Positions 32,633-42,444 of a stretch of DNA of 64,000 nt are shown in pieces; position 1 is the first letter of the stretch, and every line of letters begins with the position of its first letter. The stretch is from positions 19,379,952 to 19,443,951 of the forward strand of contig NC_052171.1 in NCBI RefSeq assembly GCF_902713615.1, written 5' to 3'. The translations under genes were made by a program, and so were the position numbers. Origin of the DNA: Scyliorhinus canicula. Lineage: Eukaryota. The notes under the pieces are model-generated. The model did not search any database and had not been told where the DNA came from. It saw nothing but the letters and a program-made list of their open reading frames with translations.

Positions 32633-33581
32633 TGTTGCACGTTTTACTATGGGCGTAAAACGCGTTTATTGGAGTGTATTAACACGCCTCCGAGTTCGAC
32701 GTGTGCTTAACACTGCTAGGCTCTGTTCTATGTAATTATTTAGCTCTGGAGTCGCCAGTTGCCGTATAGGCAACGTCACAAGTATTCCAAGGTCAAGTTC
32801 AAAGTAATAAAGACGATACACCGATTAGTAAAGTTCAAATGATCAATATTTATTATACAGTTAATAATAAATACTCATGCACACACTAAGAGACTAAGCT
32901 ACAACTAAACATAAGCAAACAGAATACTTATCTAACAGGAACAGGCAAGGTCAGAGAACGAGGCCTTCGTCCTGGTTTTGTCTGCAGCCTTCAGCAAGCG
33001 TTCTGGTACTTGGGAGTCTAGTGGGCTTGGATCGCGTAGCGAGCGTTGAACTTACGGTTTCGGCGGCTGGTGCTCAACGGCTGGAGTCAGGATGCCAGGT
33101 GTCAGTCGGAGCCGGAGCACGGGTTTAACAGACCGGACAACACGAGGTCCCTATCTTTTATAGGGGTTCCGTTGTCCTTCCCTCTTCTCGGGCGGGCTCT
33201 ACCTATTGGATCAATTTCTTATCGATACTGGATTAATTCCCCAATGCGAGGGGGTCTCCGTGATGGAGGGGGCGTTTCTTATGTCCTTTTGTTTGGAGGT
33301 TTCTGGTGCCTCGATGTCTGGGTCTTGATTGGAATGTGTCCATTCAGAACCAAATGTATCTATTGTGTGGGTGTTCAAGTCTGATGGCCTCATTAGCATG
33401 CAAAGCGTTTTGCCATTTGCACCTAGCTAAGGTCTTTTCACCTGAGCCCAAACTGGTTTCTGCTGCTGCAGAATGCAAACTGCTCTTTGCAGACTGCTGT
33501 TCTGGCTAAACTGTCTGTTTCCCAGCAGCCTTCCATTTTAGTTTGGCTCAGTGTCCATTTTGCGTGGCCAGCATGGCTACA
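32633..33581 (-). repeat. 3' LTR
   Basis: Direct repeat of 41496-42444. TATAAAA 33156-33162, AATAAA 32849-32854. Adjacent PPT AAGGAGGGAA at 33582-33591. Confidence 0.95.
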
Positions 33582-33910
33582 TTCCCTCCTTGTGATCCTC
33601 ACAATCATACTATTGTGAAGGATCACCTATGTACTTTGCCTCCTTGTGTTCTGACCTCTTGCCAGTTCCTGTTCTACTCTGTTCTAAACTATGGGAAGAA
33701 GAGAAAAAAATTTTTAACTAACATTTCTACTTGGCCCTATGTCAAAGGGACATGCATTACTACAACTGGGAACCTCTACCTATCACTATTAACCTTAACC
33801 TTAACTTAAACATTTAATCACTCTAAAACCTTAACCATTCACACCATAACATCACACTTCCCAACTCGGCAGTCGAGTATGGAACAATATAATACATGGC
33901 TGAATTTTAT

Positions 33911-34264
33911 TTACAGAGTGTTGTAATCAGTGAGGGGTTGAGGGGTTTGGTGGAATCCGAAGATGGGGGATTGCACTCTATAGATGGGTGAGGTGCTGGA
34001 ACGAGAGGCTCTCCTCTTCCATTTCCTCAACCTGAGGGTCTGCACTAGGATGATGAGGATCGCGATCACCAACAGTGATTCGATTATGTAGGACATGGAG
34101 TACCACGTCATGAATTTAGTACACCAGGTCTGAACCTCGCTGATCAGAGCTGAGCACTGGGGGTTTGTTGTACTAACATTTACGGTGGGGGTTGTGGGGG
34201 AAACGTGTCTTGTTTCCACACATATACATATGACATTAAACAGTAATAAGTGGGCTTCCATCAT
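33911..34264 (-). CDS. Small type-I membrane protein ORF of the LTR element (117 aa), in the env position
   Basis: AAAATGATGG start, hydrophobic N-terminus, Thr/Pro-rich ectodomain with NVS sequon, TM segment IIESLLVIAILIILV, basic RLRKWKRR and C-terminal YNTL. Confidence 0.65.
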   Translation of the reverse strand: MMEAHLLLFNVICICVETRHVSPTTPTVNVSTTNPQCSALISEVQTWCTKFMTWYSMSYIIESLLVIAILIILVQTLRLRKWKRRASRSSTSPIYRVQSPIFGFHQTPQPLTDYNTL

Positions 34265-35200
34265 TTTGCTGTTCTTCCTCTTTCTCTTCCTTCTTCCTCC
34301 GGTATTGACAATCCTGGCTTCGACCTCTGTCTCGTCCTTTGAAACCTTTGGGATCAAGCACAGTATCTGTCAATACACAGTTTAAGACCTTTACTTGTTA
34401 GTGCATCTGTCTTTCAAATCCCAATTGACCCTTTAAAATGACTGGCTAAGTCACACCCTGTGACTCCCCTCATTTTTTTTTTCAAAAAGCGAATTTAAAG
34501 ACCAGCATACACCTAACAATCCTTCCTTCTGCGAGCCGTCTCGCAGGCTTTGCTGATTTACCATCCGAATGTTCCCGGATGTAAATAGCATGTGGGATGG
34601 TGGCCGAAGGGCTACCTAACGTAAAATGAAAACAAACTTGGAAACAAACATCCGAATGAGTTGCGTGTGGGCCGCTACGGGTACGAGTTGGATGGAATCC
34701 CCGGGTAGGGCGTGCTGTGCCATACCCGAGCTTGGCTGACCAAGGGTTGGTTCTCAGACAGGGCGGGTCCTCAGTGCCGTTTGTCCACTGCCTGAGTAAC
34801 CTGGAAAGAAACGGGTACGAATGTGTTGACCATGACTTGCAGCCTCTATTTCGCCGAATAGAGGGGCACCTAAAAAACAATGGAGCCAAGATGCTCCAAC
34901 TGAGGACATCACTGAAGTTCTCAGAGATATCTGCGGACAAGCTATTTGGCGTGTGGCCTTACAACTTTGGAAAAGATCTCCAATCAAACCGAAGTTCTCA
35001 AAAGTATCTGCGGACAAGCTAACGTGTATGTGAGGTGGTCACAATCTTTTCAGCTGAAAAGAAGATGTCCATCCTCCAACTGAAACATTTACATTGCTGA
35101 AAACAAACAAACATAAAACGAAGACAAACATACGTGCAGGTTCCATCAGAAAGGACATCGTTTCCCTTAAACGATTCCTATCTTACATCATCTGGACACC

Positions 35201-41176: not shown

Positions 41177-41471
41177 TTCCTCTGACTCTCTTTTTATAAT
41201 TTGGAACAGGGGGTTGCTGGGGTGGTGTTTCGAGAAACGGGTACGGCTTACGCTATTTTCCGATCACAAAACTACCGAAAGTTTGTCGCAACAAAAAGCT
41301 TTCAGTTTTACCTTACAGCCCTGTTAGTACGCATGCACTAAACACACTTCCGAATTTCGCTTATTATTTTGAACACCTTGAATACTTGTGATCTCTTTCT
41401 TTCTCTGCAATTTGGAGTTCTAATTCAAATTTCAGGGTCCTGGACACTGTGGTGTTTCCACTTACAACAGG

Positions 41472-41490
41472 GTCCCGGCGGATGTCGCCA
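41472..41490 (-). promoter_or_regulatory. Putative primer-binding site TGGCGACATCCGCCGGGAC
   Basis: TGG-initiated, 5 nt downstream of the 5' LTR; cognate tRNA not identified. Confidence 0.55.
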
Positions 41491-41495
41491 CTAAA

Positions 41496-42444
41496 TGTTG
41501 CACGTTTTACTATGGGCGTAAAACGCGTTTATTGGAGTGTATTAACACGCCTCCGAGTTCGACGTGTGCTTAACACTGCTAGGCTCTGTTCTATGTAATT
41601 ATTTAGCTCTGGAGTCGCCAGTTGCCGTATAGGCAACGTCACAAGTATTCCAAGGTCAAGTTCAAAGTAATAAAGACGATACACCGATTAGTAAAGTTCA
41701 AACGATCAATATTTATTATACAGTTAATAATAAATACTCATGCACACACTAAGAGACTAAGCTACAACTAAACATAAGCAAACAGAATACTTATCTAACA
41801 GGAACAGGCAAGGTCAGAGAACGAGGCCTTCGTCCTGGTTTTGTCTGCAGCCTTCAGCAAGCGTTCTGGTACTTGGGAGTCTAGTGGGCTTGGATCGCGT
41901 AGCGAGCGTTGAACTTACGGTTTCGGCGGCTGGTGCTCAACGGCTGGAGTCAGGATGCCAGGTGTCAGTCGGAGCCGGAGCACGGGTTTAACAGACCGGA
42001 CAACACGAGGTCCCTATCTTTTATAGGGGTTCCGTTGTCCTTCCCTCTTCTCGGGCGGGCTCTACCTATTGGATCAATTTCTTATCGATACTGGATTAAT
42101 TCCCCAATGCGAGGGGGTCTCCGTGATGGAGGGGGCGTTTCTTATGTCCTTTTGTTTGGAGGTTTCTGGTGCCTCGATGTCTGGGTCTTGATTGGAATGT
42201 GTCCATTCAGAACCAAATGTATCTATTGTGTGGGTGTTCAAGTCTGATGGCCTCATTAGCATGCAAAGCGTTTTGCCATTTGCACCTAGCTAAGGTCTTT
42301 TCACCTGAGCCCAAACTGGTTTCTGCTGCTGCAGAATGCAAACTGCTCTTTGCAGACTGCTGTTCTGGCTAAACTGTCTGTTTCCCAGCAGCCTTCCATT
42401 TTAGTTTGGCTCAGTGTCCATTTTGCGTGGCCAGCATGGCTACA
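41496..42444 (-). repeat. 5' LTR
   Basis: TATAAAA 42019-42025, splice donor GTAAGT at 41918, AATAAA 41712-41717. Confidence 0.95.

Follow-up and report, generated by a model that had tools for sequence, protein, structure and literature searches.

The window analyzed here, a 64,000-nucleotide stretch of contig NC_052171.1 from the catshark Scyliorhinus canicula, encompasses a minus-strand provirus of 9,812 bp (42444 to 32633) with open gag and pol genes and, in the env position, a short open reading frame (ORF) for a single-pass membrane protein of 117 amino acids (aa). The two long terminal repeats (LTRs), 949 bp each with TG..CA ends, differ at a single position (32840 T, 41703 C), and a perfect 4-bp target site duplication (TSD), GTAT, flanks either end. 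The flanks of the provirus align end to end, and in order, with a second copy of a short interspersed element (SINE) at 42661-42780, so the insertion lies inside a SINE. A sequence-only reading of the window had described the near-identical LTRs, the TSD and the SINE insertion, all of which the sequence and the flank alignment bear out. No empty-site paralog of the insertion is present in the 64-kb window. The principal features, with the basis of each in brackets, are:

33911..34264, minus strand (read 34264-33911): 117-aa single-pass membrane ORF in the env position (sequence, selection)
39431..41176, minus strand: gag, 582 aa, ATG at 41176, no N-terminal myristoylation glycine, long helical N-terminal half, one CCHC knuckle (Pfam, model)
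39428..39430, minus strand: gag stop codon TGA in a UGA-CGG type II readthrough context, with pol in the same frame (sequence)
35201..39427, minus strand: pol, 1408 codons (Pfam, motifs)
32633..33581, minus strand: 3' LTR, 949 bp, with AATAAA at 32854-32849 and cleavage near 32829 (sequence, poly(A) tails of family RNA)
33582..33591, minus strand: polypurine tract abutting the 3' LTR (sequence)
41496..42444, minus strand: 5' LTR, 949 bp, with TATAAA at 42025-42020 (sequence)
32546..32632, plus strand: 5' part of the interrupted host tRNA-derived SINE, its last four bases, GTAT, being the left TSD (alignment to 42661-42780)
42445..42474, plus strand: right TSD, GTAT, and the 3' remainder of the SINE (sequence, alignment)

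A small membrane gene under purifying selection in the env position

The predicted product of the small ORF opens at its N-terminus with a hydrophobic stretch, followed by a Pro/Thr/Ser stalk bearing a single N-glycosylation sequon, an aromatic helix (WCxxFxxWY), a transmembrane segment at about residues 56-76, a polybasic patch (RLRKWKRRASR) and a conserved tail. The same plan recurs in older tiers of the family, with an A-x-A pattern past the hydrophobic start; because both the hydrophobic start and this pattern are kept, a cleaved signal peptide appears likely.

Compared with 25 older copies (about 72% DNA identity), the small ORF shows nonsynonymous divergence (dN) of 0.234 against synonymous divergence (dS) of 1.22, that is, dN/dS of 0.19 (0.16 on the inner branch), versus 1.19 and 2.35 for the two shifted frames. 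Third codon positions are identical in 54% of cases versus 76% and 83% for the other two. Among 12 copies picked by their primer binding site (PBS) pattern (the first 12 of a set of 20), and hence independently of the ORF, there are 8 synonymous changes per 81 sites versus 5 nonsynonymous changes per 270 (Fisher p 0.003), and 10 of the 12 have an intact ORF. Thus, the small ORF is under purifying selection and is a real gene. Some young copies seemed to have lost the glycosylation sequon, but this reading was rejected: they carry a 118-codon ORF in which the sequon is present.

At least 150 matches to the ORF of the window, those scored best in the genome, are all 99-100% identical to it, and two further tiers of small ORFs yield at least 150 scored matches each. 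The order gag-pol-small ORF is the same in the older tiers, with reverse transcriptase (RT) 84-95% identical, and in all 11 older loci fetched, the ORF lies behind pol or integrase sequence, mostly about 1 kb from the pol tail, leaving no room for env. Four homologs were detected among 1.84 billion representative proteins, all of them catshark gene models. Three NCBI catshark gene models (P0131, P0128 and P0130, one of them HEPACAM2-like) end in an exon from the small-ORF region of the family, which possibly reflects exonization by host genes.

The small ORF is also kept in a non-autonomous derivative that consists of LTRs and a longer Gag with a second CCHC knuckle and lacks pol (L159, G000:C1:17319875-17329874, and also L080, L083, L086, L092 and L096). 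The same 550-nucleotide (nt) segment of this pol-less derivative adjoins both young and older ORF types.

The env gene itself is absent in all copies examined, with no Env match in the window ORF list or in Pfam, and neither an ORF nor a Pfam match to a paramyxovirus-F-like env (PF00523) is present in the window. The claim that the element has no canonical env therefore stands as far as Env ORFs and Pfam matches are concerned, but the env position is filled by a selected 117-codon membrane ORF. Loss of env is frequent among endogenous retroviruses (ERVs) and does not affect membership by RT descent. Genome-wide, 78 env-type matches were scored in the catshark; at the 15 env loci examined, the neighbouring integrases are closer to epsilon/gamma-type Pols, and none of the 15 contains a match to the small ORF. 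Distinct from the element is a class I (epsilon-like) ERV family (L099, L101, L105, L109, L111-L113, L116 and L117) with long open env frames of up to about 560 codons and, in some copies, near-identical LTRs.

Classification of the provirus

The closest matches in protein databases are Pols with dual RNase H domains from amphibians, coelacanth and unnamed sources, with 45-51% identity over RT and RNase H for the top six and 58-61% RT identity for the five closest. The database protein P0016 matches the published RT row of snakehead retrovirus (SnRV) and is 50% identical to the element in RT, versus 36-41% for epsilon and gamma rows; P0015, from ostrich, carries the Ovex1 motifs named in PMC2717909 and is 38% identical over 1,091 aa.

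In a quick IQ-TREE phylogeny of RT (59 rows, with matches covering less than 75% of RT and the most distant plant matches omitted), all retroviral rows, including the element, separate from the Gypsy rows with support of 99. Within the retroviral part, the element belongs to a group of 14 that includes the Ovex1-type row (support 93), with the SnRV, ERV-L-like and class I rows branching from a poorly resolved base. FastTree phylogenies place the element with the same relatives in a group of 13 for RNase H (support 96) and apart from the Gypsy integrases for integrase (support 99). The view of the provirus as a retrovirus rather than an ordinary Gypsy element is thus supported, and the nesting of RT within a Gypsy family, which would have contradicted that view, does not occur in the tree. 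The assignment to a cartilaginous fish is likewise supported, as the genome searched (G000) encodes a protein identical at every residue to one that carries the NCBI label Scyliorhinus canicula. The integrase has a GPY motif (Pol 1196) as described, but its characterization as Gypsy-like does not hold given that its best match among solved structures is the foamy virus integrase and that the Gypsy rows split off.

The suggestion that the element leans toward lokiretroviruses or Odin elements, or forms a new basal lineage, is not supported. In the RT motif, the element shares LPQG with SnRV, foamy and gamma rows, versus PFG in all 24 lokiretrovirus rows of the supplementary alignment of PMC7947760, and its nearest named relatives are of the Ovex1 and SnRV types. 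A tether followed by a second RNase H is common to all retroviruses (PMC7947760, PMC9040795) and hence is no mark of loki affinity. A search for loki or foamy Pols through a short RT stretch yielded only two matches, both already found, and a scan of viral contigs for RT plus tether produced no confirmed relative.

The element combines canonical Retroviridae traits (tether plus separate RNase H, RT grouping with retroviruses, LPQG...YxDD), env excepted, and shows none of the Metaviridae traits (one active RNase H only, with RT and integrase nested in Gypsy). It shares with clade Huo/class III (PMC6001957) an unmyristoylated, helical (coiled-coil-type) Gag and a gag-pol in one frame with predicted readthrough. 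Taken together with the identities and motifs above, this places the element best in this Ovex1- and SnRV-related clade, which has already been reported in the elephant shark (PMC4422223). We hold the anatomy and classification of the provirus with high confidence.

Gag, Pol and leader signals

Pol contains a protease (DTG at residue 36), RT (LPQG, and YVDD at 351), a tether (465-596), an RNase H (662-805) and an integrase with an HHCC zinc finger, a D961-D1021-E1057 core, GPY at 1196 and a Pro/Thr/Asp-rich tail behind it. Pfam matches cover the protease, RT, RT_RNaseH (465-596), RNase_H (662-805) and the integrase zinc finger and core. The tether carries the motif IEVAS at Pol 497, so the arrangement reported from the letters alone, a degenerate tether followed by a second retrovirus-type RNase H, was recovered by Pfam, and the tail that the same reading described is present.

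Gag and pol had been called uninterrupted: both are indeed open, yet an in-frame TGA-CGG separates them. UGA-CGG belongs to the type II class of readthrough contexts (PMC13517186), and the same stop context is found in 20 of 20 young copies. A fold model of Gag built without an alignment (pLDDT 46.7) has long helices in the N-terminal half and gave no Foldseek match at E<=0.001; the long coiled-coil N-terminus proposed earlier agrees with the helices of this low-confidence model, but Pfam coiled-coil matches are all below threshold. In young copies picked by PBS, the ratio of nonsynonymous to synonymous polymorphism (pN/pS) is 0.19 for gag and 0.11 for pol; both genes have been under selection during replication.

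The leader and the region between pol and the small ORF contain the following features, all on the minus strand:

41472..41490, minus strand: PBS pairing with tRNA-Arg(TCT) except for one bulged base, 5 nt past the LTR (tRNA gene L064 of the catshark genome, G000)
41412..41429, minus strand: second site in the leader, able to pair with the anticodon arm of mature tRNA-Arg(TCT) (sequence)
41312..41319, minus strand: candidate splice donor in the leader (counterpart present in 4 of 5 older copies examined)
34346..34347, minus strand: candidate splice acceptor, 82 nt upstream of the small-ORF ATG (context matched in 62 of 68 family loci)
34395..35145, minus strand: non-coding stretch, 78-89% conserved between subfamilies (comparison)

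Among 19 young copies, the PBS has the form seen in the window in 15, matches the tRNA exactly in 2 and is another Arg-type variant in 2, the label of the latter as a second Arg-type isodecoder being by resemblance only. Of the loci with the main primer pattern, ARAGORN confirmed 1 of 12 as a tRNA-Arg gene, and of those with the second variant, 0 of 6. SnRV is primed by an Arg tRNA as well. In several leaders (L066, L068, L071, L153 and L158, and also L155 and L156), about 40 nt of the spliced 3' part of tRNA-Arg plus CCA are inserted, ending at the anticodon-arm-complementary site; in the first five, this insert replaces the start of the leader, between the PBS and the second site. The tRNA letters look like the product of over-long primer copying followed by strand transfer.

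A second candidate donor in the leader, at 41465, is found in young copies only. The NCBI gene model P0128 begins to match an older copy precisely at the acceptor AG at 34346, and RNA for the small ORF is probably spliced. The non-coding stretch 34395-35145 is better conserved between subfamilies than the neighbouring coding DNA and probably harbors cis-acting RNA signals, possibly for export or splicing; the folding energy of 34480-34800 relative to shuffled sequences is not unusual (z -0.63). Two candidate coding stretches, a 158-codon open frame (34958-34482) and the 35 codons upstream of the small-ORF ATG, were rejected, each with dN/dS of 0.70, indicating little constraint.

Family size, age and expression

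Exact-pattern counts in the catshark genome (reversed-pattern controls, 0) gave 2,395 matches to the first 31 bases of the LTR and 530 junctions of the exact LTR end with the PBS variant of the window. Of the first 100 LTR starts, all on a single contig, 81 belong to pairs, and the spacing is near-full in 37 pairs, which extrapolates to roughly 900 near-full proviruses genome-wide.

Two samples of copies were compared. In 20 copies picked via the small-ORF search, and therefore biased toward close copies, gag and pol are both open in 18, the 4-bp TSD is perfect in 16 of the 19 assessable, and the LTRs are free of substitutions in 9 of 19. The corresponding values for the 12 PBS-picked copies are 7 of 12, 10 of 11 and 4 of 11. 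Over both samples, LTRs without any substitution occur in 13 of 30 assessable copies, in agreement with the earlier proposal of recent activity, and the suggested survey of copy number and LTR identity likewise yielded many near-identical copies, among which the window copy is unexceptional. From one mismatch in 949 positions, the insertion dates to 0.24 million years (Myr) ago at a mammalian rate or 2.4 Myr at a ten-fold slower shark rate, the latter being an assumption of PMC4422223, so "very young" is a relative term that depends on the rate. In 6 of the 12 PBS-picked copies (L161, L162, L164, L166, L167 and L169), the LTR is only about 82% identical to that of the window, with about 94-96% identity over the whole element, a pattern suggestive of LTR swaps between sublineages.

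Transcription was examined in a single-cell RNA run (X24; 3'-biased library, about 1% of the run), where 5,103 reads aligned that are assignable to the family, not necessarily to the window locus. In 69 of these reads, poly(A) tails start about 20 nt past the AATAAA of the LTR, at 41692-41694, and 214 cross the junction from internal sequence into the LTR; thus, family LTRs are transcribed and polyadenylated. A further 103 reads leave the LTR end (41496) into one dominant foreign sequence, which suggests that one genomic copy drives read-through into its own flank. A search of sequencing runs found no run containing the element sequence that is recorded as RNA, and in the three contig runs used, neither strand nor level is readable.

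Comparison with named systems

The element resembles SnRV in RT (50% identity) and in a single-frame gag-pol with stop readthrough (SnRV, PMC13517186; predicted in the element), and both have an unmyristoylated Gag with a coiled coil (in the element, long helices) and one zinc knuckle (SnRV Gag, PMC2717909). It differs in lacking env and an SnRV-like accessory set (PMC12193657), in the readthrough context (UGA-CGG versus UAG-GGC in SnRV), and in having hundreds of young copies and the 117-aa membrane ORF. The elephant-shark CmiERVs (PMC4422223), whose lineage I is SnRV-related, were defined by the presence of env, which the element lacks. Ovex1/SpeV and the amphibian and coelacanth 'NYNRIN-like' Pols group with the element in RT (93) and RNase H (96) and share readthrough gag-pol and coiled-coil Gag; Ovex1 as described in PMC2717909, however, is single-copy, without a PBS or catalytic residues and with an 873-aa ORF3, whereas the element is catalytically intact and high-copy and has a third ORF of 117 aa.

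Lokiretroviruses, BHIKHARI and Odin (PMC7947760, 10.1101/2024.03.25.586437) likewise combine a coiled-coil Gag with a tether and second RNase H, and the pol-less derivative, a non-autonomous partner of the element, is built much like BHIKHARI. Lokiretroviruses, whose RT is sister to that of canonical retroviruses, have PFG and an F-like env, in contrast to the LPQG of the element and its lack of F-like env. The dual RNase H and missing env of Odin, compared by description only, fit the element, but the sea-anemone hosts differ, and the RT motif of the element is unlike that of the lokiretroviruses, the sister group of Odin. The catshark ERV-Spuma.0-Sca (PMC10699275), 9,220 bp long with an env coding sequence and an 866-bp LTR that starts differently, is a different family.

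No description of the element family or its small ORF was found in the literature searched, a scope that left Repbase/Dfam, subscription journals and most supplements outside. One ERV survey (PMC10435555) required an intact env and therefore would have left the family out; supplements of that survey and of 10.1101/2021.11.23.469661 could list it. Clade Huo/class III is already known.

Proposed mode of spread and role of the small gene

We propose that the window contains one copy of a large, long-lived, env-less ERV family of the catshark, a member of Huo/class III that spreads within cells and whose small ORF is a membrane accessory, and we assign this account as a whole a probability of roughly 0.55. 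The LTR makes the polyadenylated genomic RNA observed for the family; Gag would be translated from it, and Gag-Pol by readthrough of UGA-CGG; reverse transcription, on well-supported grounds, would be primed by tRNA-Arg(TCT), and integration leaves the 4-bp duplications seen at the insertion sites. Because there is no Env, new copies would most likely arise via retrotransposition inside germ-line or early embryonic cells. The small ORF would probably be read from spliced RNA to give a type I membrane glycoprotein, which could anchor the unmyristoylated Gag to the membrane via its conserved tail or counter a host membrane defense. Within this account, the specific role as a non-fusogenic accessory falls slightly short of an even chance, although we rank it first on two grounds: its signal peptide, glycosylated stalk and missing myristoylation motif set the ORF product apart from FAST/sORF2 proteins, and a Gag that is not myristoylated could draw on a partner in the membrane.

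Several considerations weigh against the account. Env-bearing ERVs reside in the same genome, so Env might be borrowed in trans, and the genome searches scored best candidates only, such that a rare env-bearing relative may be missed. No spliced joint is listed among the 5,103 X24 reads, given their 3' bias and the small fraction of the run. None of the trees includes loki, Odin or foamy rows, so the exclusion of these groups relies on motifs and identity, and SnRV falls outside the group of the element in the RT and RNase H trees, so the link to SnRV is tentative. The product of the small ORF is predicted; its signal peptide is called from hydropathy and the A-x-A pattern, and there is no significant match in Pfam, PDB, ESM Atlas (best 0.88, below the lead threshold) or BFVD.

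The most serious competitor, which we nevertheless regard as unlikely, is that the small ORF replaces Env as a FAST/sORF2-like cell-cell fusogen, with capsids passing from soma to germ cells or between cells; Env-independent capsid transfer is known for Drosophila MDG1-group retrotransposons (PMC11952523). These env-less LTR elements encode a short single-pass protein with a small ectodomain and a juxtamembrane polybasic patch, and the size, single helix, mature ectodomain of about 35-40 residues with an aromatic helix, and polybasic patch of the small ORF match sORF2/FAST features (PMC11952523, PMC12945298); some lepidopteran sORF2 genes, moreover, lie downstream of pol (PMC11952523). The env position, the selection and the retention of the ORF in the pol-less derivative also fit a role in spread. 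However, FAST proteins are signal-anchor proteins, whereas the small ORF has a glycosylated stalk and a signal peptide that is likely cleaved; it also lacks an N-myristoylation motif (no MGxxxS/T), where FAST/sORF2-like fusogens have such a motif or a palmitoylated dicysteine, and shows no sequence or fold match in the four databases above or, apart from the four catshark models, among the 1.84 billion representatives. Single-pass proteins, moreover, often carry a basic patch behind their membrane helix. The absence of a myristoylation motif extends to two of six Drosophila sORF2s (PMC11952523). The hosts of sORF2 are Metaviridae; the element belongs to Retroviridae.

The small ORF might also be the remnant of an env that lost its ectodomain, so that the signal peptide now adjoins the membrane-proximal region, anchor and tail, and is kept since Gag needs an Env tail for assembly or budding, a reading that overlaps in function with a membrane accessory. 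A deletion inside env would be expected to produce just such an arrangement, with an ORF in the env position, a candidate donor in the leader, a candidate acceptor, and a signal peptide followed by anchor and tail, and relatives in the clade have env or an env-like third ORF (SnRV, Ovex1 ORF3). The small ORF, however, has no CX6CC, furin site or heptad repeat and no match to TLV_coat or any other Env family in Pfam; the 1.84 billion representatives include no longer, Env-like homolog (the four matches being catshark models), and the ORF is matched at none of the 15 genomic env loci. For want of Env homology, we rank this explanation third and consider it improbable. Still further down is the possibility that the provirus is lokiretrovirus- or Odin-like, or a separate basal lineage, with an incidental small ORF: although dual RNase H and coiled-coil Gag occur in loki elements too, 73 of about 190 RT residues (about 38%) agree with the coelacanth loki row when counted by eye, and the group of the element joins the base of the retroviral part of the trees with little resolution, this alternative is hard to reconcile with LPQG in place of the PFG of the loki rows, the lack of a paramyxovirus-F-like env, the higher identity to SnRV (50%) and the Ovex1-type Pol, and the selection on the small ORF, which argues against its being incidental.

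Neighbouring sequences

Left of the SINE, at 32318-32520 of the window, lies a decayed LTR-element integrase-like fragment, recognized by eye and without a Pfam match. A 4.9-kb segment is present twice (43240-48157 and 58529-63445; 98.6% identity, 15,288 bp apart), and tandem arrays of two kinds occupy 16842-19758, 44475-45511, 59763-60799 and 2573-2716: pyrimidine-rich repeats of 17 bp (172 and 62 copies) and, next to a SINE, the 7-bp repeat AACCTAG.

Implications

The weight of the finding rests on the small selected membrane gene and not on the dual RNase H. Env-less ERVs are usually seen as plain intracellular retrotransposons with a decaying env region; here, a small membrane gene in the env slot is under selection nearly as strong as that on gag and pol and has been maintained while the family expanded in at least three waves, even in a partner element that lacks pol. 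Whatever its job, be it anchor, counter-defense or fusogen, the small ORF represents a retroviral function outside gag, pol and env, and at 117 aa, the protein is small enough for stand-alone study. A lineage of Retroviridae that has swapped Env for a miniature FAST/sORF2-like fusogen, spreads from cell to cell and is still expanding in a shark would be the first such case found in our searches; we put this forward only tentatively, but if true, it would extend the Env-independent transmission of flies to vertebrate retroviruses. With hundreds of young class III insertions, most of them intact, the slowly evolving shark genome offers population markers and a window on a poorly sampled clade.

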